From: a bacterium | GTDB lineage: Bacteria > Elusimicrobiota > Elusimicrobia > UBA1565 > UBA9628 | Direction: 5' to 3' | Assembly: GCA_021822495.1 (NCBI GenBank) | Contig: JAKAQO010000005.1 | Coordinates: 42,548-106,547 of the forward strand | DNA length: 64,000 nucleotides | Shown: in pieces, positions 9,862-49,686 of the stretch | Numbering within the stretch: position 1 is the first letter of the stretch | Layout: every line of letters begins with the position of its first letter | Notes under the pieces: model-generated | What the model saw: only the letters and a program-made list of their open reading frames with translations | Databases searched by the model: none | What the model was told of the DNA's origin: nothing | Position numbers and translations under genes: made by a program

Positions 9862-10056
9862 AAAACGGAAGGGGGGGGGCCGCTTCTCTTACGGAATCTG
9901 GAAGCGGCACTTCCTCGCCTAGGCTCGGTCGGATTCTCGCTCATCCGTCGCTTCGCTCCTCCCTTGCGACCCGCCAGTCGCGCTGTCGCGAAATTTCATT
10001 TCGCTTTTCGTCCCCCGGACGCGCGCGACTTGGCTTCGAATCCCTTCCCATAAAAA

Positions 10057-10143: not shown

Positions 10144-10146
10144 TTA

Positions 10147-10172
10147 AAAAAAAGGGGACTGTCCCCTTTTAA
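10147..10172. terminator. REP (core GGGGACTGTCCCC, 10154-10166) between the vapC stop and the tRNA-Ser 5' end
   Basis: The A8/palindrome/T4 structure is present. Confidence 0.55.
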
Positions 10173-25522: not shown

Positions 25523-26284
25523 GTGAACAAAACAATCAAGAATGCCCCAGAAGCCTTATCCGGCCTTTTTGATGGGGCCACGATCATGATCGGCGGGTTT
25601 GGTTTATGCGGGCTTCCAGAAAAAATGCTGGAAGAAATTCAAAACATCAGCGCTAAAAATCTCACCATCATTTCCAACAACGCGGGAACCGACAACTACG
25701 GAATTGGGCTTCTCATCAAAAAAGGCCGGGTCAAAAAAATGATCATGTCTTACGGCGGAGAATGCAAGGCTTTTGAGGAAGCGGCTCTCAAGGGCTTAAT
25801 TGAAGTTGAGTGGACGCCGCAAGGGACCTTGGCCGAGAGAATCCGCGCGGCGGGGGCCGGAATCGGCGGTTTTTTTACGCCTACGGGATACGGCACGGTC
25901 GTCGCCGAAAGAAAAGAGACCCGCAACATTGACGGAAAAAATTATGTCTTTGAAAAACCGCTCTTTGCTGATTTCGCCTTGATTAAAGCCTGGAAGGGGG
26001 ATACGCTCGGAAATCTCATTTACCGTAAAACCGCGCGCAACTTTAATCAGGCCATGGCCACCGCCGCGAAAACGGTCATCGCGGAAGTTGAGACCTTGGT
26101 CAAACCCGGCGATCTTGAACCCGACGCCGTTCACACGCCGGGAATTTATGTTGATAAGATTTTCCAAGGCGCAAGCTACTTAAAACCCATTGAGAAACTA
26201 ACCGTCCAAGAGCCCTCCGAAAAAGGGGACAGTCCCCTTTTTCATGAAAATGGAGGAAAAAGGGGACTGTCCCCTTTTCTATAA
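25523..26284 (+). CDS. 3-oxoacid CoA-transferase subunit A (ScoA/AtoD-like), with a repeat-encoded C-terminal extension
   Basis: GTG start. MIGGFGLCGLPE is characteristic. The ORF has no stop before 26282 and reads in frame through both REPs (tail ..KGDSPLFHENGGKRGLSPFL). Confidence 0.7.
   Translation: MNKTIKNAPEALSGLFDGATIMIGGFGLCGLPEKMLEEIQNISAKNLTIISNNAGTDNYGIGLLIKKGRVKKMIMSYGGECKAFEEAALKGLIEVEWTPQGTLAERIRAAGAGIGGFFTPTGYGTVVAERKETRNIDGKNYVFEKPLFADFALIKAWKGDTLGNLIYRKTARNFNQAMATAAKTVIAEVETLVKPGDLEPDAVHTPGIYVDKIFQGASYLKPIEKLTVQEPSEKGDSPLFHENGGKRGLSPFL
26221..26280. repeat. REP inverted doublet; cores 26225-26237 and 26262-26274
   Basis: GGGGACAGTCCCC, a 24-bp spacer, then GGGGACTGTCCCC. The doublet lies inside the 3' end of the scoA reading frame. 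Confidence 0.6.
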
Positions 26285-33653: not shown

Positions 33654-34346
33654 CTATTTTTTCCTCCGCTGGATGACATTGGCGCTGTCCAACTCCCAGA
33701 CATAACCAATGCCGTGAACGGTCTTGATATAGAAGCCTGATTCCCCCAGCTTTTTACGCAGGGCCTCGATATGTTTGTCAACGGTCGAGGCTTGAACGCT
33801 ATCGGAGTCAGAACGAATCATCTGAAGGAGAGTTCTTCTTTCCAAGGCAACCCCGGGGCGTTCCAGGATAAACGCGAGGAGATCAAACTCCGTTTTCGTC
33901 AAATCGAGGGGTTTTTGATTTAAAACCGCAATTCGCCCCAGGCGGTCGATTTCGATTTTTCCGTCTTGAGATTTCAGCGTTCCAACAGCTTCCGGTTTAA
34001 CGAAGCGTCGAAACACCGCCTCAAGCTTAGCCGACAAAAGCTCTCCCGGCATATCCGGAGAAACCACGTCATCGGCCCCGGCGTTTAAAAGTTCGATGAG
34101 GCGCGCCGCATTTTGAAGACGGGAAGAAACTAAAAGAGAAAGCCGTGTTTCTTTCTCCCGAATAAGGTTTAAGCTTTGGGCATCGGGCAAAATTGATTCG
34201 AAGATAATGACGGTTCCCGGGGGCTTCGGCAAAAGGGCCAAAGCGCTTTTAAAATCCGTGCTTCTTAAAACTTTCCAGCCCCGGAGTAAAAATGCCTCCT
34301 CCCAGTTTTTTCCCAGCAATTCCGGCCCCGCGATTAGGATTTCCAT
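33654..34346 (-). CDS. OmpR-family winged-helix regulator with a degenerate (pseudo-)receiver domain
   Basis: The C-terminal trans_reg_C domain is intact (LTKTEFDLLAFILERPG...HGIGYVWE). In the N-terminal receiver, the acidic pocket is replaced (ILIAGPE instead of DD), the phospho-acceptor position is Glu (IIFESILPD), and the conserved Lys is absent. Confidence 0.55.
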   Translation of the reverse strand: MEILIAGPELLGKNWEEAFLLRGWKVLRSTDFKSALALLPKPPGTVIIFESILPDAQSLNLIREKETRLSLLVSSRLQNAARLIELLNAGADDVVSPDMPGELLSAKLEAVFRRFVKPEAVGTLKSQDGKIEIDRLGRIAVLNQKPLDLTKTEFDLLAFILERPGVALERRTLLQMIRSDSDSVQASTVDKHIEALRKKLGESGFYIKTVHGIGYVWELDSANVIQRRKK

Positions 34347-34372
34347 TTATTTAAATTAATCTAGCAAATTGC

Positions 34373-34497
34373 GGAAGAAAAAAAAGGGGACAGTCCCCTT
34401 TTCCTCATAAACTTAAGGTCGGGGACAGTGCCGTCCCTAAGAATTATGAAGAAGAGGCACAGTCCCCTTTTTTCTTCGTTATTTCTTCGTGATTGAT
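34373..34497. repeat. Composite 120-bp REP-containing leader element (copy 1), near-identical to 47086-47210
   Basis: Three REP-like cores (34386-34398; the variant GGGGACAGTGCCGTCCC at 34421-34437; GGCACAGTCCCC at 34456-34467) plus conserved flanks TTCTTCGTYATTTCTTCRTGATT. Confidence 0.6.
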
Positions 34498-34524
34498 CCC
34501 GGCATTTAGACTACACTCTTAAGG

Positions 34525-37500
34525 ATGCGAAAAAAGAACATTTGTGAACTCGTCTCCGAAGGCGCCCAACAAAAACGTTCCCAAAAATTAGGAAGATGGG
34601 GACTCTCCCTAACTCTCCTCATTTTTCTCGCCGCCCAAGCAAAAGCACAGGTGCAAAATATTATCTCGACGCCGACCTATCCAGCCAACGGCTCTTATTT
34701 TAATCTGCAAAACCAAACGCCGAACTTTAACTGGTTCGGCCCTTCCACAACGACAATTCAATTAGCGACTTCTCCTGTTTACAATCTTCAGGTCGGCACT
34801 GACCCCACCTTTGCCGCCGGCCTTGTTATTAACGTGCAAATTGCCGCCGTGATCCCAAGCACCGGCCTCCCAAACGCTTATGGCTCCTACCTGTCTGGAA
34901 CTTCTCTAACCAATAACACCACTTATTATTGGCGCGTCTATGCGACAGATAGCTCCGGAGGCGAAAGTATGTCTTGGAGCACATTTAGCTTTGTGACTGA
35001 TTTTGCCCCTGATTCTAACCTTTCAGCATCTTACTCGGGAACGTTGAACTCTTTAGGACAGACTACTCCAGAAAACCAGTTTGTTTCTTTATCCAATGGC
35101 GCGACATCTCAATTATCCGTTTCGGCTTCATTCAGTGGGATTGCGGTTTCAAGCTCCGCCGTACCGTTAACCGGGGATAGCGCTAGTTTTACACAAGGAA
35201 CCAGCGGCTACGGTGTCCTCTATTCGACCAATTCCGGCACGACCTGGGAGGATTACTCCTCATTAGGCATAAATGTTCCAGCAGCTGGCGGTGGAGCTAC
35301 GATCTGGAATTTAGCTGTTTTTAACGGTTTTCTCTACGCTGGTCTAAGCAACGGTTCTATCATTCACACAAATAATGGAACGAGTTGGAATACGGATTAT
35401 ACTGGTTCAAATTATGGAATTGGTGGTTTTACCATATATAAAAACACTCTTTACGCCTCAAACCACGACGGTAGTAATGCGTATATGGTCTCAATTACCA
35501 ACGCTGGAACGGTCAACCGAGCCACTGTATTCAACTCTGGAGCGGGTGTGAGTAAACCAGTCGTTCTTAATAATACTCTTTTCGTCGAAGCTTCTTATAC
35601 TGGAATCCCCGCAGGAGATCCTGGAGCTGGCAACGCTGGAGGCGGAATTTTTGCGTCACAAGACGGCATCCATTGGGTTCAAACGTCCGGTGTTGGCGTA
35701 TGTAGCGACAACTTTGACCAGCTTTTTACATTTAATGGAGAGCTTTATGCAAATGTACAATCAGGGGGTTTTGGATGCAGCGGGTTATTCGTAAGCCCAG
35801 ATGGGGTCAATTGGACAACAATTGACAATCAAAGCGTTCCAGGAACTGTTAATACCGCCACAGTTTTTAATGGAAAACTTTATATTGGAGTAAACAATGG
35901 AGGCTCAAACCCGCTCCTCTATTCATCCACTAATGGGCAAAGCTGGTCAGCGGACAATGGAACACTGACCCAACCTTCCTTGGGGGGCAGTGTCAACGAT
36001 CTTAATGTGGTCAATGGCAAGCTTTACGCCGGTATTTCCACGACCACTGCCAGAATATATGTGACCGAGGATGGAAACAACTGGTTTCCATCAATTTCAG
36101 GCGGCACAGGACAAACAGGAGCAGGAGCGCCCGTTTATTTTAATGGGAATTTTTATGCCGCCGCTGGTCCCGATATCATCACCATCTCGCCCTTTAGCGC
36201 CTCTCTACCTGGTTCTAATGGAGAGCCTTCTGGAACGCTTTCTGCCGTCAGTCCGCAACTTGCCGCTTCAACCACGACAACTACTTGCGGCGGAGTGTCT
36301 CCTTGCAACGCAACCAACCAAGTCATATTTACCGCAAGCGATATGGCAGGAAACACCCTCATGTCTGGTCCTTATGCTATTTTAGTTGACACCGAGGTCG
36401 GGGTCGCCATTTCAACGCCCAGCTATCCGGGAACGCCGACAGTGGGACAGTCTCCTCCGGGGACAGTCCCTTACGTGAACGTTCAGCCCAATTTCGACTG
36501 GATTGGGCCTTCAACCGGGGTCGCTTCGGCTTTGCAGCAGCCCGCCAATTTTTTTCTTGAGGTCTCATCCAACGATCCAACTTTTTCGCCTTCTAATATT
36601 GTGATTAGCACCTCGACTCCGGTCGTCGTTTATTCCACCAATGTCCCCACCGCCAACGGAGCCTACCTTTCGCCTTACGTGCTGGGAAATAACACCACTT
36701 ACTATTGGCGCATCTATATAAAGGATAATCTGGGCGGAACCAGCCCCACATCCCCAACCTATAAATTTATCACGGATTTTGCTCAACCCGCAGTGTCCAC
36801 CTCCAGCTTTCAGAGCATCAATGCCCAAAGCTCGCTCTTACCGGAAAATCAGTTTAACGATCTCGCTTCGGGCGTCACCGCCCAAATTACGGTCCAAGAT
36901 ACTAATTCAGGCCTTGCCGTTTCGACCAGCGCGCTTTCTTTCGCGGGGGATGGACATGATGACCCTCCAATAACCTCGGGGTTTGGAATTATCTATTCCA
37001 CAAATGCCGGGTTCTCATGGATAGTGCAGTCCACCTCCGCTGAAGCCAACAACGGCAGCGCGGTGGGAACGGGAATTCGCTCATTAGCTGTATTTAATGG
37101 GGATATCTACGCTGGGGATTACAGCGGTCATGTCTATTACAGCGCCGACGGCAACACCTGGAGCGCGGGAACTCCCGGGACAAACCCCATTCAATCTTTA
37201 AGCGTCTTCAATGGAATCTTATACGCCGGAGACGGCGGAGGATATATTTACTCAAGTTCAAACGGCAGCACTTGGAGTACAACTAATGGCGGCTCTGCCG
37301 TTGGGGCAGGCATACTCGCAATGACCGTCTTTAACGGACAACTTTATGCCGGAGATAATTTTGCCCGCGTTTTTGTCATGGATGCAAGTGGAAATTGGCA
37401 TAACGTAGACGGCGGAACTGTTGGAACGAGTTCCATTGAATCCTTGGCCGCGTTCAACGGCCAACTCTATGCCGGAGATTATTATGGAAATATCTATGCC

Positions 37501-40500
37501 AGCACAAACGGAAGCTCTTGGAACAGTCTTGGAACTATCGGCAACTCCGGCTCTCTAATTGAGACCATGGCTGTTTTCAATGGAAAGCTTTACGCTGGAG
37601 ACAGTAATGGGTTTATTCATTTTAGCGCTAATGGAGCGTCATGGACCACCAGTAATAATGGAAGCGCTGTTGGATCTGGAATTACCGCTTTAACTGTCTT
37701 TAACGGCCAACTTTACGCTGTAGACGCTCTTGGTTATGTTCATATCAGCGCAGACGGAGTTCATTGGAACTCAATCAAGGTCGCTACGCAAGGAACGGGA
37801 TTAGCTGGATTTAATGGAAACCTCTATGTTGGCGACTATTACGGCGCCGTCTACAGAGCCATCCCTCTTGCCGCGACGCTTTCCGGGTCCGACGGGACAA
37901 CGGCCAGCCAAACCTTGTCGGCAAACAACCTCAATCTCGTTCAATCCACCACAACCGCGACCTGTGGCGGGACTTCGCCTTGCAGCGCGACCGATCAAAT
38001 CATATTTACCGCCTCTGATTTAGCAGGAAATGTCGTCGAAAGCGGGCCGTACGCGATTTTGGTAGACACCACCGTGGCGCCGGCGATTTCGACGCCTTCC
38101 TATCCTTTAAACGGAGCTTACCTCAATTTCAACCCTAATTTTAACTGGACCGGACCCTCAACCAGCATCGTCTCCGGGCTTTTGGCCCCTTCCTATTATC
38201 AACTTGAGGTTTCAAGCAATGATCCCACCTTCGCGACGGTCTTCGTCAATATTTCCACGCCCATTCCGCCGGTCAATACCGGTCTTTCCACCGATAACGG
38301 CGCCTATATTTCTACTTATACGTTTGCCAATCTGACCACTTATTATTGGCGCGTAAGAACTATTGATGGGTTCGGCGGAACCAGCCCCTGGTCCACAACC
38401 TTTAGTTTTACCACTGATTTCTCAAGTCCAACGGCCGTCGGCGGAAGTTTCGCGACGCTCAACAGTCTCGGGGGGCTTGTTCCAGAAAATCAGGTCACGG
38501 TTCTCCAGTCAGGCGTCACTGCTCAGATTAATATTACCGATATCGGTAGCGGGTTCTCCGCCTTTAATTCCTCAAATTATTCCGTCAGGTATTCCACCAA
38601 CGCCGGCCTCTCCTGGATTTCAGAACCCTTTTCCGCGCTCGCTTTTACGGGCTCTATCGGCCAAACCTCGACTCAAACCTTCACGGCCTACGGTCTTAAT
38701 CTCGCCGCCTCAACCAATTCTTATGTCTGCGGGGGAATTTCTCCTTGCGGCGCAACCAACCAAGTTGAATTTACTTTTTCCGATCAGGCCCTCAATTTCA
38801 GCACGGCCGGCCCTTTTGCCGTCATTGTAGATACTCATTCAACCGATGTTTTGGTCTCCACGGCCAATGTCGCGCCTTTGGGAATCCCCCAAAACACCTC
38901 GGTTGCCTTTATCCGCCTGACCTTGAACAGTCTCACTGGAACCGCACCCTGGACCGGGCTCACGGTTCAAAGGCTCGGCAGTGGAACGGACGCGGATGTT
39001 CAAAACGTCGCCATCTACCGTGATAACGCGGGAACCGGAATATTTTCTCCCTCGGATACTCAAATCACCCAAAATGCGGTCTTTTCGGGGGGAATCGTCA
39101 ATTTAACAATGACCAATCCCGAGAGTATTACGACCTCGACCAAGACCTATTTCCTTGTCTATACCGCGGCCCCGGGGGCGCTGGTCGGAGATGGGCTCGC
39201 GGCGGAAATTACATCAACCGCCTCTTTTACCTTCAGCAACGGATACCAGATGAGTTCGGCCCAGACGACGATTTATCCCTTGATCTCCAGCACCGCCACC
39301 GTGGTCGACGGTCCCAATTATCTCTACATCACTCCGGCGAGCCAAGCCCCCAACGATGCCCCGCCCGGAACAGCCAACATCGAGATGCTTTCTTTAAAAG
39401 CCTATACGAATACTGGAACAAGCACTCTTTCCAAAATTGTATTTCATCTCCTAGGAACCGGGGCTTCTAATGACATCAGCTCCATCTCCATCTACAGAGA
39501 CTCAAACGGCACTGGGGTTTATGCCCCCAATGACAGTTTGGTGACCAGCGGCTCGGACTCCTTTTTTAACGGAGTCTCAACCGTCGCTTTCACGACCACC
39601 ATCGCCTCCGAAACCGTGACCACCTCTCCCATTTATTATTTCGTCCTCATCAGCTTGTCTCCGAACGCGCCATTAGGAGATACCTTAGGAATATCTATTT
39701 CCACTACCTCGGACGTCGAGCTGATAGACGTCTTAGATACGACTACTTTTACGACCAGCCCCGCGGCCTCCTCTCTTTTGACCATTGAATACATCAATAC
39801 CTTGAACGTTCAGGGAGTCAACCAAATCCCGTCCTCCCTTTTACAGGGTCAGCAATACGCCATTTTAAAAGCGAGTTTTACGGTTTCGACTGGGGAAACT
39901 TCGTTTAACGGAATCACTATCACGCGCATAGGACTCGGCCATGATTCGGATGTTTCGGCCGTCAGGGTGTGGCAGGACCCCGCTCCACCCGAGACCTTTA
40001 ACCCCGCGACCTTTTTGCAGTTGAGTTCAGGAACCTTTGTGAACGGAAACGCGCAGCTAAACTTCCCGCTTCAAACCTTGTCCGCCGGAACCACCTACGT
40101 CTATTACGTGACCTATAACATTAGTCCCACCGCCCTTCAGGGAGACACCTTGGGCGGAAGAATTACCAGTAATCTCGATATCTCAGACACCAATCCCGGA
40201 ACGACGATTGTCGGCAATTTCTCGATTAATTCGGCCACTTCCCCCGTGGTTCCAACAACCGCAGGGCTTTTTGTCAGCGCTCAAAATGTCGCCCCGAGTG
40301 ATCTCTTGCAAGGCGCGACCAATCAACAAATGCTCAATTTGACGATGGATACCACTCAATACTCAGTTCTTTTGGGAGCTTTGACCTTTAATTCCTTGGG
40401 AACGGCTTCTTCTTCCGATATTTCGCGGGTGGAAGTCTACCAAGACCTCGTGGGAAACGGAATTTTAAATACATCGACCGACCCGCTTTTAAGCGCGGTT

Positions 40501-42159
40501 TCATACCCCTTTATCTCGGGAACCGGCATCATTCCCTTTTCGCCGGGAATCACCATCAGCACTATTCCCATCCGGCTTCTGGTCGCGGTAGACGTTTCAA
40601 CCGGAGCCAATTATCTCAACAATGATTTTGGAATCGGAATTTCAACTCCCGCCAATATCTCAATCAACGCGCCCAATTTTGTCGTTCCCTCAACCACCAC
40701 ATTCCCGGCCGATTCAAGTATTATTCCCATTACGAAAGCCCCGGATGTCATGAGCGTTTTCCCGACTTCCTTGATGGATGTCAACGGCGTCGTTCAAGGC
40801 CAAAACGCGCCGGCGGCGAAACTGAGTTTAGTCACCCAGCACAGTTCCGTGACCTGGACGACGATTTCCGTTCAAAGAAGCGGCACCCTGCCGGATTCGG
40901 GAGTTGATTCCGTCAATATTTATGACGACGTAGATCAAAATGGTGTTCTTGACTCTTCGGATGTCCTAGTGGGAAGCGCGCCCTTTGTTTCCGGAACAGC
41001 CAATATTTCTTTCTCCACCGCGCAACTGGTCAGCCCCGCAGGAGCGGATTATCTCATTACGCTTCAAATTGACCCTAACGCTACTCCGGGAGACACCATT
41101 GGAATTTCCTTGTCCGGCGTGTCCAACTTTACCGTGTTGCCCCCGGACACCGTCTCGGGTTCAAGCCTTCCGTTTAACTCGGCCTTAGGGCCGGTTCTCA
41201 ATATTAAAACTCCCACTCAACCCATCGTCACTTTCCCGAACGGAGATTATTCCAGCTCCTTTGATTCGGTCGGCTTTATCTGGTATTCAACGGTCGCCGT
41301 CGGTTCCATTTCCAGCGCGGCCTATGCCGTGGGAACGACTCCCGGGGGAACCGATATCGCGCCGTATACCGCCATTCCTTTTGCGGCGTCTAGTTTCACC
41401 GCGACCAATCTTCTCCTCTCTAACGGGGCCACTTATTATGTCTCGGTGGAAGCCACCTCTAACTACGGCTTTACCAGCCCGCCGGGAATCAGCCCCGGGT
41501 TTTTGGTTGATTTAATCACCCCAGGGTCGCCGACCAATCTCAGCGCCAATGTCGGCGTAAGCTCGATTTATCTGACCTGGGATCCGGGAACAGTCGGGCC
41601 CTCAGGCGCTTCGGGATATCTTCTCGAATATTCAGACGTCGAACATCCGACCTGGTATAACGCCAAGACCGGAGCGGTCACCGCCCTGGCCGCCGGCCCC
41701 CATGGAACTCTTTCGGCCAATTTCATTCCCTCTTCGCCGTTTTTGTTCAACAATCCGCCGCAAGGAACCCTTCTTTTCCGCGTTAGTTTAGTCAACGGCG
41801 CGGGGGTTCAAAGCGCCCCGTCCAATTCGATCAGGGTTCTCTTTGGAACGCAGTCAAACGCTGGAATATCGAACGTCTCATCCTATCCCAATCCCTTTAA
41901 CTCAAATTCCGGAGTCGCGACTATCGTCTACACCTTGGATACTCCGGGGAATGTCTCCATTCAAATCTACAGCGTCTTTGGGAGTCTCGTCAAAAGCCTC
42001 TCTTATTCTGGTGGAAGCGTGGGGGGGCAAGCCGGCGTCAATACCGTGACCTGGGACGGAACCGACTCAGGCGGACGCAAAGTCTCCAAGGGCATCTACA
42101 TCGCCGTCCTCAAAGCCAATGGTATGAGCGTCCAATACAAAATCGGGGTCAATCACTGA
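34525..42159 (+). CDS. Giant (2544 aa) secreted repeat-rich surface protein with Asp-box/BNR-like beta-propeller repeats, FN3/Ig-like modules and a T9SS-type C-terminal sorting domain
   Basis: A signal peptide is present. There are three super-repeats of about 560 aa, each with TTYYWR(V/I), S-x-(D/N)-G-x-(S/T)-W propeller repeats and the Cys motif CGG.SPC.AT.Q..FT.SD. Five repeats of about 125 aa follow (..IYRD.NGTG..). An FN3 domain is next (IYLTWDPG), and the protein ends in a C-terminal domain of type PNPFN..ATI.Y.L....V.I.IY...G.LV..L..G..WDG.D..G..V..GIY. Confidence 0.75.
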   Translation: MRKKNICELVSEGAQQKRSQKLGRWGLSLTLLIFLAAQAKAQVQNIISTPTYPANGSYFNLQNQTPNFNWFGPSTTTIQLATSPVYNLQVGTDPTFAAGLVINVQIAAVIPSTGLPNAYGSYLSGTSLTNNTTYYWRVYATDSSGGESMSWSTFSFVTDFAPDSNLSASYSGTLNSLGQTTPENQFVSLSNGATSQLSVSASFSGIAVSSSAVPLTGDSASFTQGTSGYGVLYSTNSGTTWEDYSSLGINVPAAGGGATIWNLAVFNGFLYAGLSNGSIIHTNNGTSWNTDYTGSNYGIGGFTIYKNTLYASNHDGSNAYMVSITNAGTVNRATVFNSGAGVSKPVVLNNTLFVEASYTGIPAGDPGAGNAGGGIFASQDGIHWVQTSGVGVCSDNFDQLFTFNGELYANVQSGGFGCSGLFVSPDGVNWTTIDNQSVPGTVNTATVFNGKLYIGVNNGGSNPLLYSSTNGQSWSADNGTLTQPSLGGSVNDLNVVNGKLYAGISTTTARIYVTEDGNNWFPSISGGTGQTGAGAPVYFNGNFYAAAGPDIITISPFSASLPGSNGEPSGTLSAVSPQLAASTTTTTCGGVSPCNATNQVIFTASDMAGNTLMSGPYAILVDTEVGVAISTPSYPGTPTVGQSPPGTVPYVNVQPNFDWIGPSTGVASALQQPANFFLEVSSNDPTFSPSNIVISTSTPVVVYSTNVPTANGAYLSPYVLGNNTTYYWRIYIKDNLGGTSPTSPTYKFITDFAQPAVSTSSFQSINAQSSLLPENQFNDLASGVTAQITVQDTNSGLAVSTSALSFAGDGHDDPPITSGFGIIYSTNAGFSWIVQSTSAEANNGSAVGTGIRSLAVFNGDIYAGDYSGHVYYSADGNTWSAGTPGTNPIQSLSVFNGILYAGDGGGYIYSSSNGSTWSTTNGGSAVGAGILAMTVFNGQLYAGDNFARVFVMDASGNWHNVDGGTVGTSSIESLAAFNGQLYAGDYYGNIYASTNGSSWNSLGTIGNSGSLIETMAVFNGKLYAGDSNGFIHFSANGASWTTSNNGSAVGSGITALTVFNGQLYAVDALGYVHISADGVHWNSIKVATQGTGLAGFNGNLYVGDYYGAVYRAIPLAATLSGSDGTTASQTLSANNLNLVQSTTTATCGGTSPCSATDQIIFTASDLAGNVVESGPYAILVDTTVAPAISTPSYPLNGAYLNFNPNFNWTGPSTSIVSGLLAPSYYQLEVSSNDPTFATVFVNISTPIPPVNTGLSTDNGAYISTYTFANLTTYYWRVRTIDGFGGTSPWSTTFSFTTDFSSPTAVGGSFATLNSLGGLVPENQVTVLQSGVTAQINITDIGSGFSAFNSSNYSVRYSTNAGLSWISEPFSALAFTGSIGQTSTQTFTAYGLNLAASTNSYVCGGISPCGATNQVEFTFSDQALNFSTAGPFAVIVDTHSTDVLVSTANVAPLGIPQNTSVAFIRLTLNSLTGTAPWTGLTVQRLGSGTDADVQNVAIYRDNAGTGIFSPSDTQITQNAVFSGGIVNLTMTNPESITTSTKTYFLVYTAAPGALVGDGLAAEITSTASFTFSNGYQMSSAQTTIYPLISSTATVVDGPNYLYITPASQAPNDAPPGTANIEMLSLKAYTNTGTSTLSKIVFHLLGTGASNDISSISIYRDSNGTGVYAPNDSLVTSGSDSFFNGVSTVAFTTTIASETVTTSPIYYFVLISLSPNAPLGDTLGISISTTSDVELIDVLDTTTFTTSPAASSLLTIEYINTLNVQGVNQIPSSLLQGQQYAILKASFTVSTGETSFNGITITRIGLGHDSDVSAVRVWQDPAPPETFNPATFLQLSSGTFVNGNAQLNFPLQTLSAGTTYVYYVTYNISPTALQGDTLGGRITSNLDISDTNPGTTIVGNFSINSATSPVVPTTAGLFVSAQNVAPSDLLQGATNQQMLNLTMDTTQYSVLLGALTFNSLGTASSSDISRVEVYQDLVGNGILNTSTDPLLSAVSYPFISGTGIIPFSPGITISTIPIRLLVAVDVSTGANYLNNDFGIGISTPANISINAPNFVVPSTTTFPADSSIIPITKAPDVMSVFPTSLMDVNGVVQGQNAPAAKLSLVTQHSSVTWTTISVQRSGTLPDSGVDSVNIYDDVDQNGVLDSSDVLVGSAPFVSGTANISFSTAQLVSPAGADYLITLQIDPNATPGDTIGISLSGVSNFTVLPPDTVSGSSLPFNSALGPVLNIKTPTQPIVTFPNGDYSSSFDSVGFIWYSTVAVGSISSAAYAVGTTPGGTDIAPYTAIPFAASSFTATNLLLSNGATYYVSVEATSNYGFTSPPGISPGFLVDLITPGSPTNLSANVGVSSIYLTWDPGTVGPSGASGYLLEYSDVEHPTWYNAKTGAVTALAAGPHGTLSANFIPSSPFLFNNPPQGTLLFRVSLVNGAGVQSAPSNSIRVLFGTQSNAGISNVSSYPNPFNSNSGVATIVYTLDTPGNVSIQIYSVFGSLVKSLSYSGGSVGGQAGVNTVTWDGTDSGGRKVSKGIYIAVLKANGMSVQYKIGVNH

Positions 42160-42827
42160 TATGAAAAAAAGGGGACAGTCCCCTTTTTGGGGGAAATCTC
42201 GAAAAAGGGGACTGTCCCCTTTTTTGGCCGCCCGATGCGGCGCTCAAGCCCCATTTCCTCTCTTATCTCTTGCTCACGCTCACCACCATACACTATTTCT
42301 TTATAAAAATAAGCCCTCTCCTGGGCAGAATTTCCAAGAGATAAATAACCTGGGCTTTCCTCCAGAAAAGGGGACTGTCCCCTTTTTCCTGTATAGAATC
42401 CATAGCTGGACCAAGAGTAATCTTCCGGTTTTTTCACGATGGCTGCGCGAACGGGGTTTAACTCAATATAACGGCCACAGAAAAGCAGGCTTCTCTCCGT
42501 TGGCAACAAGACGCTTTTATAACGCCCCTGCCAGAGATGACCCACCAGAGAATTTTTTCCTCGGAAATAATCGGAATATCCCTGCAAAAGTCTTTGCATC
42601 GCCTTACCCAGGTCTTCCGCTTTTTGAACTTGAGCTAAGAAATGAACATGATTTGGCATTAGGACATAATGATACAGGTGAAAAGGATTTTTTTTCTTCG
42701 CCCATTTCAGAAGAGCTAAGAATTTTTCATAATCTAAATCTTCCTGAAATATCTTCTGTCGGTTATTCCCACGAGCCATCAGATGATAAAACATTCCCTC
42801 AAGCACATTTCTCCTCTGTCTTGGCAT
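42153..42827 (-). CDS. IS200/IS605-family Y1 tyrosine transposase of the REP-associated type (RAYT)
   Basis: The HuH motif is MPNHVHFL and the catalytic Tyr context is GHLWQGRYKS. One REP (42370-42382) is inserted in frame, giving GKRGQSPF. The ORF has no stop until it has read through the downstream REP doublet (..KKGTVPFFEISPKKGTVPFF). Confidence 0.7.
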   Translation of the reverse strand: MPRQRRNVLEGMFYHLMARGNNRQKIFQEDLDYEKFLALLKWAKKKNPFHLYHYVLMPNHVHFLAQVQKAEDLGKAMQRLLQGYSDYFRGKNSLVGHLWQGRYKSVLLPTERSLLFCGRYIELNPVRAAIVKKPEDYSWSSYGFYTGKRGQSPFLEESPGYLSLGNSAQERAYFYKEIVYGGEREQEIREEMGLERRIGRPKKGTVPFFEISPKKGTVPFFSYQ

Positions 42828-42960
42828 ATCACCCCTCCTTTCCGCCTAGATTCTCTGCTATATTTCATACGGCAGAAACACAAAAAAAGTTCCCTCAAAA
42901 AAAGGGACAGTCCCTTTCTCGGTTAAAATTCCTAAAAAAAGGGACTGTCCCTTTTTTCTT
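42161..42960. mobile_element. RAYT-REPIN unit: RAYT gene flanked by inverted REP doublets (42165-42235 and 42897-42960)
   Basis: Downstream doublet cores are at 42171-42183 and 42207-42219. Upstream doublet cores are at 42904-42914 and 42941-42951. This is the classical genomic context of REP-associated tyrosine transposases. Confidence 0.6.
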
Positions 42961-44485
42961 ATTTCTACTTCTCTCTTCCATATCGGCTTCCGCAGCCAGC
43001 AGCTTCTATGCCGGTTCTCCTAACGAAATTTTCCAGTTCGGAGCTGACGCCAGGGCCATGGGAATGGGAAACGCTTATACCGCAATCGCTGGCGGCGCGT
43101 CTTCTCTTTACTACAACCCCGCAGGACTCGGCCTTCTCAATGGTCCCGATATCAGCGCCATGCAGGCCAGTCTCATTGGCGGCGCGGCTTATGAAAATTT
43201 ATCCTATGCCCAGAATTTTTCAAAGATGCCTGGAGCTTGGGGAGTTGAAGCCCTCAACATGGGCGTTGGAGGGGCCGAGCAAAGGGACTCTCAAAATAAT
43301 TTGACCGGAAGTTTTGGCTTTCAAGAAACCGGATATGGAGCGGGATTTGGATTGCGAAATGTCGTCATTCCAGGTTTATCATTGGGAGGATCTTTCCAAG
43401 GGCTCAGCCGAAGCTTAGGTGGAAGTTCTTCCGACATGCTCTATGGAGCCAATCTCGGCGCCCAATACGGCCCTTTTTTTGATAATATGGTGACCGCCGG
43501 ACTCGTTCTCCAAAACGGCTTTAACGGAGCGCAAAACACCTTTGACCGGTTGCCTACGGTTCTACGCGCGGGCCTGGCCGTCACTCCCATCGACAATCTT
43601 CTTATCTCCGCGGACTATGGAAACGACGGAGATTATGGAATAGGCGCGGAATATAGAATATGGATGTTCGCCCTGCGAGCCGGATATATGCCGGAAGGCC
43701 TCACCTTTGGCGCTGGAATCTATTATAAATCAATGGAAGCCGATGTCGCGATGGTCAATGATCCGATTTTTGGAATGGGGGAGCGGTTTTCGATCAACTA
43801 CCGATTCGCGGGGAAGAAAAAAGAAAAGCCTCTCCAGACTTATACCAACAGTTATCTTGACGCCGCGAAAAAAGAACTTAATATTCGCAATTACCTCAGC
43901 GCGCAACTGGCTCTTGAAGAAGCGATGGGGATTGATCCAACCCAGATTCCCCAAATATGGAAGGAAAAACTCAAACTTCTTCAAGCGTTCAATCAATATT
44001 TAGATCTCAAGAATCGACCGGATGAGGTTAAGACTCTTCTCGCTAATGATCCGGCGGCGATACTCGCCCAAAAATCGATTTTTTCTTATTTAGAGGGGCG
44101 TGACGGCGATGCGATGATTTGGGCCTCCGTGGCCGCTGGAACGGCTCATAAATCCATGCCCTATATTGACTTTATCAAGACAATGGCTTATCTTACGAGT
44201 ATGAAGGTTTCGGAAGGAGATTTGTTGCCGCCGGCCGAATATGTTTCCAAAAAAATGGAGACTGCTCTTCAGGACATTTATCAAAAACGCTTCGCGAATT
44301 CAGTCAGAGATTGCCAACAGGCCATTGTGGTCAACCCGAAAGAATCTTCCGCCTGGACTCGTCTTGGCAGCGCTTATTTTGCCTGGGGACACAAACAAGA
44401 AGCCAAAAAGGCTTATCAAAAAGCCCTGGAGCTCGATCCCAAGGATGAAAATCTTAAGAAATTCATGGAGATCTATATCAAATGA
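42956..44485 (+). CDS. Outer-membrane beta-barrel protein with a PorV/PorQ-like N-terminal motif and C-terminal TPR; 5' start unresolved
   Basis: The signal-peptide-like segment KKGTVPFFLFLLLSSISASAASS is partly encoded by a REP. It is followed by FGADARAMGMGNAYTAIAGGASSLYYNPAGLG and Gly-rich beta-strands, with TPR at the C-terminus. No ATG/GTG/TTG start exists between the REP doublet and this segment. The frame is open back to 42161, antisense to the RAYT gene. Confidence 0.45.
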   Translation, partial: FLFLLLSSISASAASSFYAGSPNEIFQFGADARAMGMGNAYTAIAGGASSLYYNPAGLGLLNGPDISAMQASLIGGAAYENLSYAQNFSKMPGAWGVEALNMGVGGAEQRDSQNNLTGSFGFQETGYGAGFGLRNVVIPGLSLGGSFQGLSRSLGGSSSDMLYGANLGAQYGPFFDNMVTAGLVLQNGFNGAQNTFDRLPTVLRAGLAVTPIDNLLISADYGNDGDYGIGAEYRIWMFALRAGYMPEGLTFGAGIYYKSMEADVAMVNDPIFGMGERFSINYRFAGKKKEKPLQTYTNSYLDAAKKELNIRNYLSAQLALEEAMGIDPTQIPQIWKEKLKLLQAFNQYLDLKNRPDEVKTLLANDPAAILAQKSIFSYLEGRDGDAMIWASVAAGTAHKSMPYIDFIKTMAYLTSMKVSEGDLLPPAEYVSKKMETALQDIYQKRFANSVRDCQQAIVVNPKESSAWTRLGSAYFAWGHKQEAKKAYQKALELDPKDENLKKFMEIYIK

Positions 44486-44552
44486 AAAAAAGGGGACAGT
44501 CCCCTTTTGGGGACATTTCTTTAAAAAAGGGGACAGTCCCCTTTTTTCTTTG
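44483..44552. repeat. REP doublet in direct orientation (cores 44492-44504 and 44529-44541, both GGGGACAGTCCCC)
   Basis: Both central bases are A, whereas the other doublets are inverted (A...T). The doublet follows the stop of the outer-membrane protein gene. Confidence 0.55.
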
Positions 44553-44561
44553 GAGGTTGTC

Positions 44562-47075
44562 ATGGACATATTAATGATTATTTTTATCCCAAGTCTTTTT
44601 CTTGTGTTGGGAGCCCTGATGTTTATCGTCAGCCGGGTCATGGAGTTTTCACAATCCAACCGTTATTTCGCAAAACAACGAGGAAACAGTCTTATGTTTA
44701 CACGTTTCATGACTCAAATCGCCATAGCGAAAAGCCAACTGGGAAAAAGGGCCCAGGAACTGGAAGCCCTCTCCATGCGTCTTCAAATGAACAATGAAGA
44801 GCTCGCGAGGCTCAACAATCTCAAGATGAAATTTCTTTCCATGGCGGTTCATGATATTCGAAACCCCTTGACCGCCATTACCGGCTATAGCGATATCCTG
44901 TCTCGCAACAAAAATATTGGTCCGAAAGAACAAGTCCTCTCGAAAATGATCTTGACCGCGACGCGGCAAATCAACCACCTCATGGGCGACTTGACCGATC
45001 TGGCCGTCATCGAAGCGGGAAAATTCAAGATGGAAATGGCGCCCTTTGATCTGGCCGGACTCATCCAAGAAGTCGGCGCGACGCTGGCTCCTGGAGCCTC
45101 TAACAAAGGCGTCATTCTTTCTGTTCTGGAACCTCCGTCGGGAATCATCATCACCGCCGACCGCTACCGCATTTGGCGCGTTTTGACGAATCTTTTAGGC
45201 AACGCCGTCAAATTTACTCCCTCGGGCGGCCGCGTTGAACTGAGAGCCGAAGTCGCGGCGGGAATGGCCATGATTTCCGTTCAAGATAATGGTCCCGGAA
45301 TTCATCCCACCGAACGCCGAAAAATTTTTGAAAAATTCTACCAGTCAAAGCACATCAAGGATGAAAAGGCCCGCAAGGGCGGCTGGGGGCTGGGACTCGC
45401 CATCGCCCAAGAAATTGTTCAAGCTCACGGAGGGGAAATTGGGGTTGACAGCCGCGGTCTCGGGCATGGATCCACTTTTTGGGTTCGCATTCCTCTTAAA
45501 GCTCGGCGCCCCATTCGCTCTAGCCCCATGCGCCTTTCTCTTGCTTTAATCGGGTTTTTAGCTCTTTCTTTTATTCCGAAAAAAACTGGGGCTCAAACTG
45601 TTCCCTTTCTTGAAAAATCCAAGTTCGAGAAATCCCTAGAAACCAAGGTGGACGGGGTTCTCCTCAATATCCTGGGGCCCAATCGGGCCAAGGTCATCAT
45701 CAACGCGACCTTAAACTTTACCAAGACGGAAAGTTTTCAAACCGAAGGCGCAAGCGTCACAACCACAAAAACCTCGGGGCTACCTTATCTCTGGCAAGAG
45801 CCCAGCAAAACGGCGCAGCCCGAAGAACTTCTTCCTGGAGTGCCGCTTGATTCCGGAGGCCCTGCTCTTCCCATGCCACCGCCGTCAATTAAGGGATATA
45901 AAAAAGAAGATTCCTTTCCCGCCGAATTTATCAAGAGGTTGGATGTCACTCTCATTTTGGACAATTCCGTTAAGGGAAATCGCAGCGCCGAAATCGGCAA
46001 AATTACATCCGACCTTCTCAATCTCAATCCCAAACGGGGGGATTCTTTAACCGTGGTCCACACCGAGTTTTCTCCTATTTGGAAAACCGTCTGGTATTCT
46101 CCGGCCACTGCGGGCATGCTTCTTAAATATATTTTGACCGGGTTTCTCTTTTTCATGGCCTTGATCGTCATCGCTATCGGATTCATAAAAATCGCCAACG
46201 CCATGCGCATGATGGCTAACGCCCAAGCTCAGCAAATTTCCATGGAAATGAAGGGACTCGATGGCGAGGGGGGAAGCGGACCAGGAGGGCTTTTAGGACA
46301 CAATACGCTCATGATTGGGGATCAAAAATCAGGAGAAAACGTCCCTGAGAATAAAAATGAACCCGTCATGTTCGACGTAGGGATGGATCAGGTAGAAACC
46401 CTGGCTCAAATGCTTCTCCCCGAACCGGCCAATAACATTGCCATTGTCGCGTCCCGCCTAACCCCGGATGTTTCGAAAAGACTCATTGAGGCCCTTCCCC
46501 CGGAACTGGCGACGCAAGTCATCAGCCAACTCGCTCGTCCGCGCTTTATCGATCCGGAAATTATCGTCAACTTAAAGGAAGAGCTGGAACGGCGTCTTTC
46601 CGGCGCGGTGGGAGGCGTTCATTATCTCTCGGAACTCATGTCGGCCGCCAGCCAAAAGAGGCGCCATGAGATGCTCGAAGCCGTTCGCGCGCAAAACCCG
46701 AACCTCGCGGAAGAACTTAGAAAAAGAGTCTTTTTCATCGAGGATCTTTCAAAGCTGAGCCAACAGGAATGGTCATACCTCTTATCCTTGGTCACCTATC
46801 AAGAATGGAGTGCGGCCCTTCATGAGGGACCCCAAGTGGTCGTCGAAGCCATTAAGCAAAATCTATCGGAAAAAGCCTGGGGGGTTCTTAGCGAAATGAT
46901 TGAAACGGCTTCTCCCAGCATAGAACAAGCGGAAATAGCGCAAGACAAAATCGGTCAAAGCGTCTCGGAACTCATCAAGGAACAGAGAATCAAGACCATC
47001 GCACCACAATTGGGACTTCAGGTTCATGAATCTCCAATTGAGGAAGAAAAAGGCGCAGAAAGCAACAAAAAGTAA
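44562..47075 (+). CDS. Multidomain fusion of a membrane histidine kinase (HisKA + HATPase_c), a FliF/SctJ-like periplasmic ring-building segment with a TM anchor, and a FliG (rotor/switch protein) middle + C-terminal domain
   Basis: GGAGG lies 6 nt upstream of the ATG at 44562. The kinase motifs are the H-box AVHDIRNPLTAITGYSDIL, the N-box LLGNAVKFT, and the G-boxes DNGPGI and GWGLGLAIA. There is no stop after the kinase. A signal/TM-like segment MRLSLALIGFLALSF (ATG 45528) is followed by about 200 periplasmic residues, then the TM segment LLKYILTGFLFFMALIVIAIGF. The FliG-like region is LPPELATQVISQLA...EELERRLSG.VGG...NPNLAEELRKRVFFIEDLSKLS..E..YLLS.V....AL......V.EAIKQNLSEKAW.VL.E.....SIEQAEIAQ. 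Alternatively these are two genes, with the second starting at 45528. Confidence 0.6.
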   Translation: MDILMIIFIPSLFLVLGALMFIVSRVMEFSQSNRYFAKQRGNSLMFTRFMTQIAIAKSQLGKRAQELEALSMRLQMNNEELARLNNLKMKFLSMAVHDIRNPLTAITGYSDILSRNKNIGPKEQVLSKMILTATRQINHLMGDLTDLAVIEAGKFKMEMAPFDLAGLIQEVGATLAPGASNKGVILSVLEPPSGIIITADRYRIWRVLTNLLGNAVKFTPSGGRVELRAEVAAGMAMISVQDNGPGIHPTERRKIFEKFYQSKHIKDEKARKGGWGLGLAIAQEIVQAHGGEIGVDSRGLGHGSTFWVRIPLKARRPIRSSPMRLSLALIGFLALSFIPKKTGAQTVPFLEKSKFEKSLETKVDGVLLNILGPNRAKVIINATLNFTKTESFQTEGASVTTTKTSGLPYLWQEPSKTAQPEELLPGVPLDSGGPALPMPPPSIKGYKKEDSFPAEFIKRLDVTLILDNSVKGNRSAEIGKITSDLLNLNPKRGDSLTVVHTEFSPIWKTVWYSPATAGMLLKYILTGFLFFMALIVIAIGFIKIANAMRMMANAQAQQISMEMKGLDGEGGSGPGGLLGHNTLMIGDQKSGENVPENKNEPVMFDVGMDQVETLAQMLLPEPANNIAIVASRLTPDVSKRLIEALPPELATQVISQLARPRFIDPEIIVNLKEELERRLSGAVGGVHYLSELMSAASQKRRHEMLEAVRAQNPNLAEELRKRVFFIEDLSKLSQQEWSYLLSLVTYQEWSAALHEGPQVVVEAIKQNLSEKAWGVLSEMIETASPSIEQAEIAQDKIGQSVSELIKEQRIKTIAPQLGLQVHESPIEEEKGAESNKK

Positions 47076-47085
47076 AAGAAGAAAA

Positions 47086-47210
47086 AAAAGGGGACAGTCC
47101 CCTTTTCCTCATAAACTTAAGGTCGGGGACAGTGCCGTCCCTAAGAATTATGAAGAAGAGGCACAGTCCCCTTTTTTTCTTCGTCATTTCTTCATGATTA
47201 AATGCCGCTT
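47086..47210. repeat. Composite 120-bp REP-containing leader element (copy 2), near-identical to 34373-34497
   Basis: About 115 bp are near-identical to copy 1, including the variant core GGGGACAGTGCCGTCCC (47125-47141). Confidence 0.6.
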
Positions 47211-47228
47211 TTGTTCTACCCTATAACT

Positions 47229-48173
47229 ATGAGTGAAAGTCCAAAAGGTTCTATCTTTTCCTCATTAAGGGCATTAGAGGAAGTTCTGGAAGAAACTCCC
47301 ACTGCAATACCTACTCCGCAAAACGTTTCTCCCGCTCCTGTTCAAGCCGCACCACCGCCACCCACTCCCACGCCCATGAGTTCAACGCCGCCCGTTGATT
47401 CTTCAAGCGAAGCTCTCAAATCCGTGGAAGCAAAGATTGAAAAAATCGATCAAAAAATTCAGGAATTAGGAAATCTCCCAATCTCGCCAAATCTTGATCG
47501 CATTGAAGCTCTTGAGAAAAACCTACAACAGATGCAGGAGCGGGCCATCCAGGCAGAAGTTGCGCTCAGAGAACGAGAAAAATCCCAAGAAGCCGCAAGA
47601 CGTGAGACAGAATCTCTTCTTCAAAATCTAGCATCCCAAAGACGACTCGAAGAATCCGACAGGCAAATGAAGGAGAACCTGTCCTACTGCCGGCACCGCA
47701 TCGAGGAATTAGAAGAGCGGCAAGCCTCTCTCAAAATTTCAGATACGCAACAGTCGGAGCATGAGTTTAAATCGCTCTTAAAAAATTTTATGGAACAAAT
47801 CGACCTTAAAACAGCCCCGATTTTAACGTCTCTCCTTGAACTCAAGAAAGAGAATCAAAACCGCGAAAAAGAGAGTCTCAATATGGAAAAAAGGATAGGC
47901 CATCTTGAAACCAAAACCGCTAATAAAAGCCAAGTTGACGCTCTGCGCGAAGACTTCCTCCATTTAAAACAGTCCGTGGAAAAAATTAATTTGGAAACAT
48001 CGGAAAAGCTCGATAAAATAACCGCGGCATTAAGCCTATTGTCGCTTAAACTCCACAAAGATAAGGCAACAGAAGAATTAATCATTCTCGATAAAGAGTT
48101 TCAAAAAATACACTCTATTCTCAACGCCAATATTTCCAACTCTCCCAAACAAACAGGAATAGCCCCTGATTGA
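47229..48173 (+). CDS. Pro-rich N-terminus plus long coiled-coil protein (function unknown; placed in the motor-like cluster)
   Basis: A PAPVQAAPPPPTPTP segment is followed by heptad-rich sequence with abundant E/K/L/Q. The start at 47229 is the second in-frame Met; the ORF tracker starts at 47202. Confidence 0.4.
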   Translation: MSESPKGSIFSSLRALEEVLEETPTAIPTPQNVSPAPVQAAPPPPTPTPMSSTPPVDSSSEALKSVEAKIEKIDQKIQELGNLPISPNLDRIEALEKNLQQMQERAIQAEVALREREKSQEAARRETESLLQNLASQRRLEESDRQMKENLSYCRHRIEELEERQASLKISDTQQSEHEFKSLLKNFMEQIDLKTAPILTSLLELKKENQNREKESLNMEKRIGHLETKTANKSQVDALREDFLHLKQSVEKINLETSEKLDKITAALSLLSLKLHKDKATEELIILDKEFQKIHSILNANISNSPKQTGIAPD

Positions 48174-48211
48174 TTTGGAATTCTCTTTTCTTTCCTTATA
48201 TAATAGGCATC

Positions 48212-48949
48212 ATGGAACTGACATCGATTATCGGCCTTGGAGCAATTTTAACTCTAACCGCAATTGGGCTCGCCACGGGAGGGCTCCCGGCGGTTTTCAT
48301 CAACTGGCACGGAATCGGCATCGTCCTGGGCGGCACTTTTTGCGCCTTGATGATTAACACTCCCCTGGATATCTTGCTCAGAACTGGAGCGGCTATAACA
48401 GATTTAGTTTCAGCCGATCCTTACGTCGATCGCATCGCCCTTGTGGACGCGATCATGGCCTTGGCTCAAGAGGTTCAATCCCGAGGAATCAGCGCCTTTA
48501 ACAACGTCAACAAAACGGTTGCCGCTGGGTATCTCGCTTATGCCGCTCAAATTGCCGTCGAATACAATAATCCTGAAACCCTCCGGCAGGTCCTGGAAAA
48601 TGAGATTATTCAAAACTCCGATTTACAAAATGAAGCGGTCAACGTTTTTAGAACCGCAGGAATTTTGGCGCCGATGTTTGGGCTTTTAGGGACCTTGATC
48701 GGAATTGTCGAAGTTCTGCGCCAAATCGCCAACCCCGCTCAAGTAGGCTCCGCCATGGCAGTCGCCATTACTACCGCTTTTTATGGTATTGCGACGGCTA
48801 ACGTTTTTTGCGTGCCAATAGCTGGGAAATTGAGAATCAGGTATTGGAGAGAAACGCAGGCTAAAACCATGGTTTTAGAAGGCGTCTATGAAATTCTTCA
48901 ACGAACGCCCACCGTCATCATCTCCAGGAAACTAAAATCTTATTTATGA
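48212..48949 (+). CDS. motA: MotA/PomA-type proton-channel stator subunit
   Basis: Four TM helices with a large cytoplasmic loop. The TM3-TM4 core is APMFGLLGTLIGIVEVL...AMAVAITTAFYGIATAN. I chose the ATG at 48212; the ORF tracker's TTG is at 48170. Confidence 0.65.
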   Translation: MELTSIIGLGAILTLTAIGLATGGLPAVFINWHGIGIVLGGTFCALMINTPLDILLRTGAAITDLVSADPYVDRIALVDAIMALAQEVQSRGISAFNNVNKTVAAGYLAYAAQIAVEYNNPETLRQVLENEIIQNSDLQNEAVNVFRTAGILAPMFGLLGTLIGIVEVLRQIANPAQVGSAMAVAITTAFYGIATANVFCVPIAGKLRIRYWRETQAKTMVLEGVYEILQRTPTVIISRKLKSYL

Positions 48950-48975
48950 TAAAAAAGGGACAGTCCCCTTTTTCT
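48950..48975. repeat. REP (core GGGACAGTCCCC, 48957-48968) between motA and motB
   Basis: An intra-operon copy, so perhaps an attenuator rather than a full terminator. Confidence 0.5.
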
Positions 48976-48980
48976 TGATT

Positions 48981-49673: not shown

Positions 49674-49686
49674 GGAGAAATTAAAT

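Follow-up and report, generated by a model that had tools for sequence, protein, structure and literature searches.

A duplicated 120-bp repeat upstream of two Elusimicrobia genes is most probably a recent mobile REP cluster joined to an older shared promoter motif

Two genes of a bacterium of the Elusimicrobiota (lineage Elusimicrobia; UBA1565; UBA9628) are preceded by almost the same 120 bp of intergenic DNA, which raises the question whether this repeat is a regulatory element common to both genes or a piece of mobile DNA. The window analyzed was a stretch of 64,000 nucleotides (assembly GCA_021822495.1, contig JAKAQO010000005.1, positions 42,548 to 106,547 of the forward strand), and all positions below are window coordinates unless another locus is named. 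One copy of the repeat (copy A, locus A) lies upstream of a giant surface-protein gene and the other (copy B, locus B) upstream of a gene for a 314-aa coiled-coil protein in a motor-like gene cluster. A first-pass annotation, made from the sequence of the window, had described the repeat as containing a repetitive extragenic palindromic (REP) sequence, a variant core and a half-REP, and had read the whole as a shared cis-regulatory element, such as a leader, an attenuator or a small RNA. The present analysis points instead to two parts of different age: most probably the repeat is a recent, mobile REP cluster joined to an old promoter motif shared by the two genes.

The repeat search and the pairwise alignment of the window matched copy A at 34374–34496 with copy B at 47078–47201. 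The first 100 nt (34374–34473 and 47078–47177, repeat family D6) were 100% identical, an exact repeat far beyond chance, and in the pairwise alignment the similarity continued to approximately 34494–34496 and 47199–47201. The copies differ at three positions, the T-run of copy B being longer by one T and two bases being substituted (T/C and G/A), and the near-identical duplicate, which had been placed at approximately 34379–34497 and 47088–47206, is thus real. Also its distance to the plus-strand starts, given as about 25–30 bp, was confirmed: 28 nt separate the end of copy A from the ATG of the giant gene (34525), and approximately 28 nt the end of copy B from the ATG at 47229, the start used in the public gene call (P0001, 314 aa) and in agreement with the alignment of orthologues. 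Copy A is situated between the giant gene and a divergent regulator gene (start 34346, minus strand), and copy B begins 3 nt past the TAA stop codon (47073–47075) of a gene encoding a histidine kinase fused to FliG (below the kinase-FliG gene).

The left part of the repeat, approximately 100 nt and below called the composite, consists of GAAG-A8, a REP, a linker, the variant core, a second linker, a half-REP and T6–7, in this order, with the canonical REP, the variant core with its GCC insertion and the half-REP all lying where the first-pass annotation had put them (Table 1). The three cores are near-perfect palindromes and agree in their central base. Each linker is the inverted copy of the other and the arms are hence inverted, so that the whole element folds as a single hairpin of approximately 104 nt with the variant core at its tip. 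Folding, which had been left as a check, predicted this long hairpin for either strand and for RNA as well as single-stranded DNA, with z-scores of −4.0 and −4.4 for the plus-strand RNA with flanks, −7.8 for the minus-strand RNA and −5.9 for single-stranded DNA, and none of the shuffled sequences folded as well. The hairpin is followed by T6–7 on the plus strand and by T8 on the minus strand. The Rfam scan at the gathering threshold returned only three tRNAs and no family for the composite, and a permissive scan of 34250–34650 gave only sub-threshold matches to microRNA precursors and small RNAs, as expected of any long hairpin. Compensatory changes were found in 0 of the 19 predicted pairs and RNAalifold missed the long hairpin, a comparison that with only four sequences is uninformative.

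Table 1. Positions of the features discussed in the text; window coordinates, and location only for the sites of the sister species.
Feature	Position	Strand	Remarks
Composite, copy A	34374..34473	.	GAAG + A8, REP core, linker, variant core, linker, half-REP, T6
Composite, copy B	47078..47178	.	REP core, variant core, half-REP, T7
Canonical REP core GGGGACAGTCCCC	34386-34398 (A) / 47090-47102 (B)		core search
Variant core GGGGACAGTGCCGTCCC, GCC insertion	34421-34437 (A) / 47125-47141 (B)		core search
Half-REP AGGCACAGTCCCC	34455-34467 (A) / 47159-47171 (B)		core search
Direct repeat, locus A: TTCTTCGT TAT TTCTTCGT GATT	34472..34494	+	26-nt exact match in sister species; kept in species 2 and 3
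Direct repeat, locus B: TTCTTCGT CAT TTCTTCAT GATT	47177..47199	+	kept in sister species, L026 and L027
−10-like hexamer TACACT (putative)	34512..34517	+	17 nt past repeat, 7 nt before ATG 34525
−10-like hexamer TACCCT (putative)	47217..47222	+	17 nt past repeat, 6 nt before ATG 47229
OmpR/PhoB-family winged-helix regulator gene, 230 aa	33654..34346	-	divergent from giant gene; PF00486 Trans_reg_C, E = 2.8e-19
REP-associated tyrosine transposase (RAYT) gene, 224 aa	42153..42827	-	between both copies; PF01797 Y1_Tnp
Inverted REP doublet, 3' side of RAYT gene	42171..42219	.	just past giant-gene stop; family D2
Inverted REP doublet, AGGGACAGTCCCT type, 5' side of RAYT gene	42903..42952	.	family D2
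Sister species, composite site 1			directly past cation-ATPase stop codon; 72-nt tandem units
Sister species, composite site 2			between DUF3307 and thiolase gene
Sister species, composite site 3			near HicB; decayed copy

Orthologous loci from related populations were obtained by exact-protein look-ups (L-numbers are labels for the public loci and contigs compared with the window). The sister species shows full synteny with the window, including the gene for a REP-associated tyrosine transposase (RAYT), with the regulator 82% and the 314-aa motor-cluster protein 65% identical. At locus B of the sister species, 68 bp (CAAAATAATAACAGTCTCTATTTACTTCGTCATTTCTTCATGATTC) separate the kinase-FliG stop codon from the next gene; this gap holds the motif of the right-hand end and an apparent decayed single REP, and contains no REP1, linkers or variant core. 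At its locus A (...CCCGCCGTTTTCTTCGTTATTTCTTCGTGATTG...) 26 nt match the right end of copy A exactly, and the composite is absent. The same combination, composite absent and motif present at locus A or B, was found in species 2 (L020), species 3 (L023, L026) and a further lineage (L027), so that altogether three related species lack the composite at locus A and three related lineages lack it at locus B.

The composite was present elsewhere. In the approximately 60 kb covered of the sister species it was detected at three other, unrelated loci with 91–95% identity, linkers included (Table 1), and at the orthologous positions the window carries a plain REP doublet (28510/28547) or a single REP (53443). 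At the site past the ATPase gene the 72-nt unit stands twice in tandem in L016 and L018 and once in L017, a variation in copy number between strains; this tandem amplification was seen in the sister species only, and none in the window species. The first-pass annotation had named many further copies across the genome at unrelated genes as the sign of a plain mobile repeat, and the three sister-species loci agree with this in sense; the window species itself has two in 77 kb (77.3 kb of the source contig, stitched from the window and two flanking loci). No composite was found outside the window species and the sister species in a BLAST search of 1.54 Mb of loci, including 80 loci of RAYT homologues. 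A scan for the exact variant core CGGGGACAGTGCCGTCCCTAAG gave 0 matches in 185,579 species-representative genomes, a collection evidently without the assemblies of this species, and a degenerate variant-core scan of the JGI metagenomes also gave 0 matches, the window species apparently not being in that collection either. Two assemblies of the window species, GCA_027319695.1 and GCA_021842185.1, contain the variant-core pattern. Judged from this comparison, the REP-bearing 100 nt, missing from the orthologous sites, present at unrelated genes and variable between strains, are most probably a mobile element resembling bacterial interspersed mosaic elements (BIMEs) and REP doublets forming hairpins (REPINs) and not a leader, and the proposed leader, attenuator or small RNA could not be upheld.

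The right-hand end of the repeat behaves in another way. These approximately 25 nt (TTCTTCGTyATTTCTTCrTGATT) form a direct repeat with an 11-nt period, TTCTTCGT-N3-TTCTTC(G/A)T-GATT, which in the window is matched only at the two sites listed in Table 1. A degenerate 21-mer of it had a single match at each A or B locus of the relatives, two on L029, the contig spanning both, and none elsewhere in the loci examined. The conservation beyond the REP cores that had been noted in the first-pass annotation is thus real and consists of these last 25 nt, kept upstream of both genes in every species sampled. Window and sister species agree in the two bases that distinguish the motif of A from that of B (T versus C, G versus A), and therefore the right-hand 25 nt have not recently diverged; the motif would be an old similarity between two promoters, outside the recent copy. 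On these bases, the recent duplicate is only approximately 34374–34480, and the rest is old paralogous similarity.

Eight promoters, those of loci A and B in four lineages each, were aligned. The repeat columns were invariant, and the alignment further showed a conserved TTT and an invariant TAnnnT box 17 nt downstream of the repeat; in seven of the eight promoters the ATG follows this box after 6–8 nt. Locus A of the sister species departs from this pattern, since the corresponding ATG is now ATT there and another ATG comes 22 nt later. This arrangement suggests activator-dependent promoters with a poor −35 region and nearly leaderless mRNAs. Regulators of the OmpR/PhoB family classically bind sites that consist of direct repeats with a period of 11 bp and overlap the −35 region. 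The repeat has the corresponding features, a period of 11 nt, a position at or overlapping the −35 region and conservation in orthologous promoters, and the gene divergent from the giant gene, which adjoins it in all species, encodes a winged-helix protein of this family with full-length but sub-threshold alignments to PhoB, BaeR and OmpR-type models. The adjacent regulator is the candidate that would probably bind the repeat, the site written as TTCTTCGTYATTTCTTCRTGATT being its putative target, and co-regulation of the giant gene and the motor-cluster gene through the direct repeat is plausible. The idea of a shared cis-regulatory element may thus stand in the form of a short DNA direct repeat older than the REP insertion, and it is not supported for the composite.

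In related species the motif extends upstream as long arrays of CTTTCCGTT-like units of approximately 10–11 nt, with about 15 units in L020 (arrays at 9530–9660 and 9830–9940 of L020, 9500–9560 of L023 and 2440–2580 of L026). The relatives also have a second, inverted array on the regulator or upstream side, and the length of the arrays varies greatly between species. The window species has only the two proximal units.

Concerning the origin of the second copy, the duplication is, by all appearances, very recent, since the copies are identical save for the length of the T-run while the intergenic DNA has heavily diverged between the two species. The REP cluster would be selfish or neutral and propagated by the RAYT, encoded 5–8 kb from each copy, and/or by recombination between REPs; mobilization of the composite by the RAYT is presumed from the sequence. 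Two other origins were ruled out: a single segmental duplication of promoter and REP, as the locus-specific bases of the motif are older than the split of the two species, and a transposon with target-site duplication, as neither copy is flanked by one. The right junction falls inside TTTTCTTCGT, and in the elements of the sister species each REP is followed by ATTTCTTCAT. Between the sequence following the REP in the element, CCCC-TTTCTTCAT, and the motif TTTCTTCGT there is a microhomology of approximately 9 nt, which may have anchored a homology-guided copy from one site to the other by gene conversion or template switching. Such a copy would explain the identical junctions, the retained locus-specific bases of the motif, the absence of target-site duplications and the short intergenic region at A, which is 178 bp in the window versus 536 bp to 2.4 kb in the relatives. 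The REP relic kept at B in the sister species favors a transfer from B to A over the reverse. In species 3, a REP adjoins the conserved box upstream of the regulator, at the position of REP1 in copy A.

The REP core, GGGGAC[A/T]GTCCCC between runs of A and of T, is a short GC-rich palindrome and was found in 56 strand-hits in the window at two or fewer mismatches, as against 1.2 expected from shuffled sequences. Altogether 26 REP sites were present in the 77.3 kb, approximately 23 of them between called genes (public gene calls), and many form inverted doublets approximately 37 nt apart (repeat families D1, D2 and D7). In the contig extension of approximately 13 kb neither the composite nor a REP was found again.

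The RAYT gene lies between the two copies. Its product scored 82.4 bits against the NCBIfam equivalog NF047646 REP_Tyr_transpos (cutoff 80) and has both the HUH motif (HVH) and the tyrosine motif (YIELNPV). At the C-terminus KKGTVPFF occurs twice and is translated REP. The sister species has the gene at the same position, between the giant gene and a TPR gene; outside the group, the closest RAYTs come from Omnitrophota. A RAYT gene flanked by REPs, as here, is the layout reported for REP/BIME-RAYT systems (PMC2817692, PMC3333891, PMC3116915). The tail of the protein as a whole (...KKGTVPFFEISPKKGTVPFFSYQ) is translated REP, its open reading frame (ORF) crossing three REPs (42153–42405); the ORF and the stop codon of the giant gene overlap by 7 nt, and only residues 3–140 match the model.

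Several observations weigh against the view of the repeat as a mobile REP cluster joined to an older promoter motif. Both insertions are at exactly the same position relative to the motif, which random transposition would hardly produce and which allows for targeting or selection, and only two copies were found in the 77 kb of the window species. The tetranucleotide GTAG or CGTC conserved at one end of the palindrome in most described REPs (PMC3733652, PMC3333891) is not on the canonical REPs, in which the A-run passes straight into GGGG; CGTC is present only inside the variant core GCCGTCCC. As for the promoters, they were assigned by conservation alone, and a simple sigma-70 promoter scan listed neither site, the −35 region being weak at A. 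Finally, copy A lies between divergent genes with no gene reading in, and a terminator would have no obvious job there.

The identical junction at both loci would be accounted for if the RAYT/REPIN system had inserted the composite beside TTCTTCGT in two independent events, recognizing a short target in the manner of IS200/IS605. Transposases of the Y1 type in the IS200/IS605 family insert beside a specific short sequence, and the RAYT gene lies between the copies. RAYTs are related to these enzymes (PMC3333891). However, the three copies of the sister species are not beside the motif, their left flanks being TTAAATAATTA and their right flanks unrelated, which makes targeted insertion improbable. 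RAYT-mediated transposition of REPs is also not known to have been demonstrated directly. To conceive the whole 120 bp as a cis-regulatory RNA of the giant and motor-cluster genes is still harder. The strong structure, the T-run after the hairpin on both strands and the identical position relative to both starts are in its favor, but four related lineages keep the genes and the motif and lack the element at both orthologous sites, in the sister species the same element is found beside unrelated genes, with variation between strains, and the conserved TAnnnT box, 6–8 nt from the ATG, is downstream of the element, so that the element is probably outside the 5' leader. With neither an Rfam match nor, in the four sequences available, any compensatory pair, such an RNA is very improbable.

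A composite of mobile origin might also have been retained as an insulator or terminator, blocking read-through, which at B would come from the kinase-FliG gene and at A from antisense or divergent transcription, or binding a nucleoid protein and so isolating the activator-dependent promoter. The T-runs after the hairpin, T6–7 on the plus and T8 on the minus strand, fit this idea, the terminator scan flagged REP1 at B as terminator-like on the minus strand, copy B fills the space from 3 nt past the stop codon to the promoter motif, and the composite is present in all assemblies of the window species that cover the sites. Such functions are also reported for REPs and BIMEs of E. coli (PMC3333891, PMC2817692). 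On the other hand, the related species do without the composite at A and B alike, neither neighbor of copy A is transcribed towards it, REP1 on the plus strand has only four T's and was not flagged by the scan, and two copies cannot show selection; retention for such a function is therefore to be regarded as possible but rather unlikely. A bolder combination, in which a RAYT-mobilized hairpin was recruited, by targeting or selection, against the activator repeat of exactly these two promoters and replaced the 10–11-nt arrays of the relatives as a portable insulator or terminator tuning a shared regulon, has little probability. An assembly artefact, i.e. a chimeric join or a duplicated contig end, can practically be dismissed. 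Short-read contigs often break in the element, four short contigs among them, as is expected of repeats in short-read assemblies, but the same junctions, with the same unique flanks on both sides, recur in independent assemblies, with at least three spanning A (copy A in L001, L002 and L003) and at least two spanning B (copy B in L012 and L013), and the copies differ at three positions.

Under the reading as a mobile cluster beside an old promoter motif, the composite most likely does nothing specific; since it is absent from both sites in the relatives, it is dispensable for the shared regulation. At B it would likely, but incidentally, terminate or stabilize the transcript of the preceding kinase-FliG gene, close before the next promoter.

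REPs also coincide with the ends of called genes elsewhere in the window. One doublet (26225–26274) is within the last 60 nt of a called gene for a CoA-transferase subunit (25523–26284, 253 aa), the orthologue of which has 240 aa in the sister species; species 2 and 3 have both subunits in one fused protein (459 aa). Apparently the 3' end of this gene was remodelled by the REPs. The public call of the kinase-FliG gene (876 aa, start 44445; region 44445–44560) takes in the REP pair 44492/44529, and with an orthologue of 838 aa in the sister species the true start is probably downstream of the pair. A called ORF of 104 aa (9858–10172) overlaps a tRNA gene on the opposite strand (10057–10143) and a REP (10154) and is probably spurious. 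Besides such gene ends, the only clear intragenic sites are the adjacent REP-like sequences TGGGACAGTCTCC and GGGGACAGTCCCT at 36443–36471, within the coding sequence of the giant gene. This gene also has internal repeats (34912–38795), with a 123-nt period at 37322–37843 (D3) and segments of 86 nt and 30–47 nt recurring 1.6–1.8 kb apart (D4, D8, D12), which are consistent with repeated propeller or Ig-type modules.

The region between the regulator and the giant gene is a hotspot of gain and loss. In the sister species the gap from the regulator to the giant operon is approximately 2.3 kb (L016, 6818–8849) and contains small ORFs besides DUF2442, genes for two HicB-like antitoxins and, in L019, one for a HicA toxin. 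In species 3 the same gap holds an ORF of 104 aa, and in the window species it is just 178 bp (34347–34524) with the composite. Loci L003 and L018 are both from GCA_021842185.1, with the regulator of the window species (100%) on one contig and that of the sister species (82%) on the other, so that this bin mixes two related populations.

The motor cluster (43058–52718) directly follows the gene of the 2,544-aa surface protein and comprises genes for a TPR protein, a histidine kinase fused to FliF_C/FliG_M/FliG_C, the 314-aa coiled-coil protein, which had no family match, MotA-like and MotB-like (OmpA) proteins, a HEAT-repeat protein and a CHASE2-nucleotide cyclase. It is kept in at least four related lineages (window, L006, L026, L027). 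As no other flagellar genes were seen in the window, the cluster looks like a non-flagellar motor module of the FliG/MotAB type.

For the annotation of this genome, the result sets a selfish repeat apart from a regulatory signal, and the REP cluster should be masked as a mobile element of the BIME/REPIN kind. The RAYT extends REP/RAYT systems to an uncultured lineage labelled Elusimicrobia and has Omnitrophota-like relatives. The 25-nt repeat suggests that one OmpR-family regulator may co-control the 2,544-aa surface protein and the kinase-FliG/coiled-coil/MotA/MotB/HEAT/cyclase cluster across several species, and in this regulatory prediction, clean and concerning an unusual surface protein with a motor-like cluster in an uncultured lineage, lies the main value of the analysis. 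The case also illustrates how apparent conservation past the core of a repeat may arise where a mobile repeat abuts a pre-existing promoter motif and would be copied via microhomology with it.

Among known systems, the ERIC/IRU (enterobacterial repetitive intergenic consensus/intergenic repeat unit) and Correia elements and palindromes like miniature inverted-repeat transposable elements share with the composite the form of an imperfect palindrome of approximately 100–125 bp, intergenic, near promoters and possibly with terminator- or promoter-like ends. They differ in that the composite is built of REP units, has no target-site duplication and is linked to a Y1/RAYT enzyme rather than to a DDE transposase. 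The promoter motif is comparable to Pho boxes and OmpR sites, with two 8-mers in an 11-nt period that end 17 nt from the TAnnnT box, a poor −35 region, retention at two promoters in every lineage sampled and an adjacent gene of the OmpR/PhoB family. Its sequence, however, is unrelated to the Pho box of E. coli, its binding is putative, and the upstream CTTTCCGTT-like arrays of the relatives and the apparently leaderless mRNAs are further differences.

The composite itself is closest in kind to REPINs and BIMEs. With the REPINs and RAYTs of Bertels and Rainey (PMC3116915, PMC3337134) it shares inverted REP arms, one long hairpin and near-identical dispersed copies, and in addition a REP-flanked RAYT gene is kept at a conserved chromosomal position in the sister species. 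Unlike in REPINs, there is a third, variant REP at the tip of the hairpin, the element is approximately 100 nt long, only two copies are known in the 77 kb of the window species, and one end merges into a native promoter motif. Compared with BIMEs, the REP sequence is unrelated, its flanks are A and T runs, the GTAG tag is missing, the REP orientation cannot be scored in the usual way as the core is almost a perfect palindrome, and the host phylum is another one, the MAGs being labelled Elusimicrobia. Yet the composite resembles BIMEs, especially BIME-2, in being an extragenic mosaic of canonical REPs and variants with a longer loop, joined by conserved linkers, in its tandem amplification sharing the junction REP (a 72-nt unit, one versus two between sister strains) and in its tie to a Y1 transposase (PMC3333891, PMC2817692).

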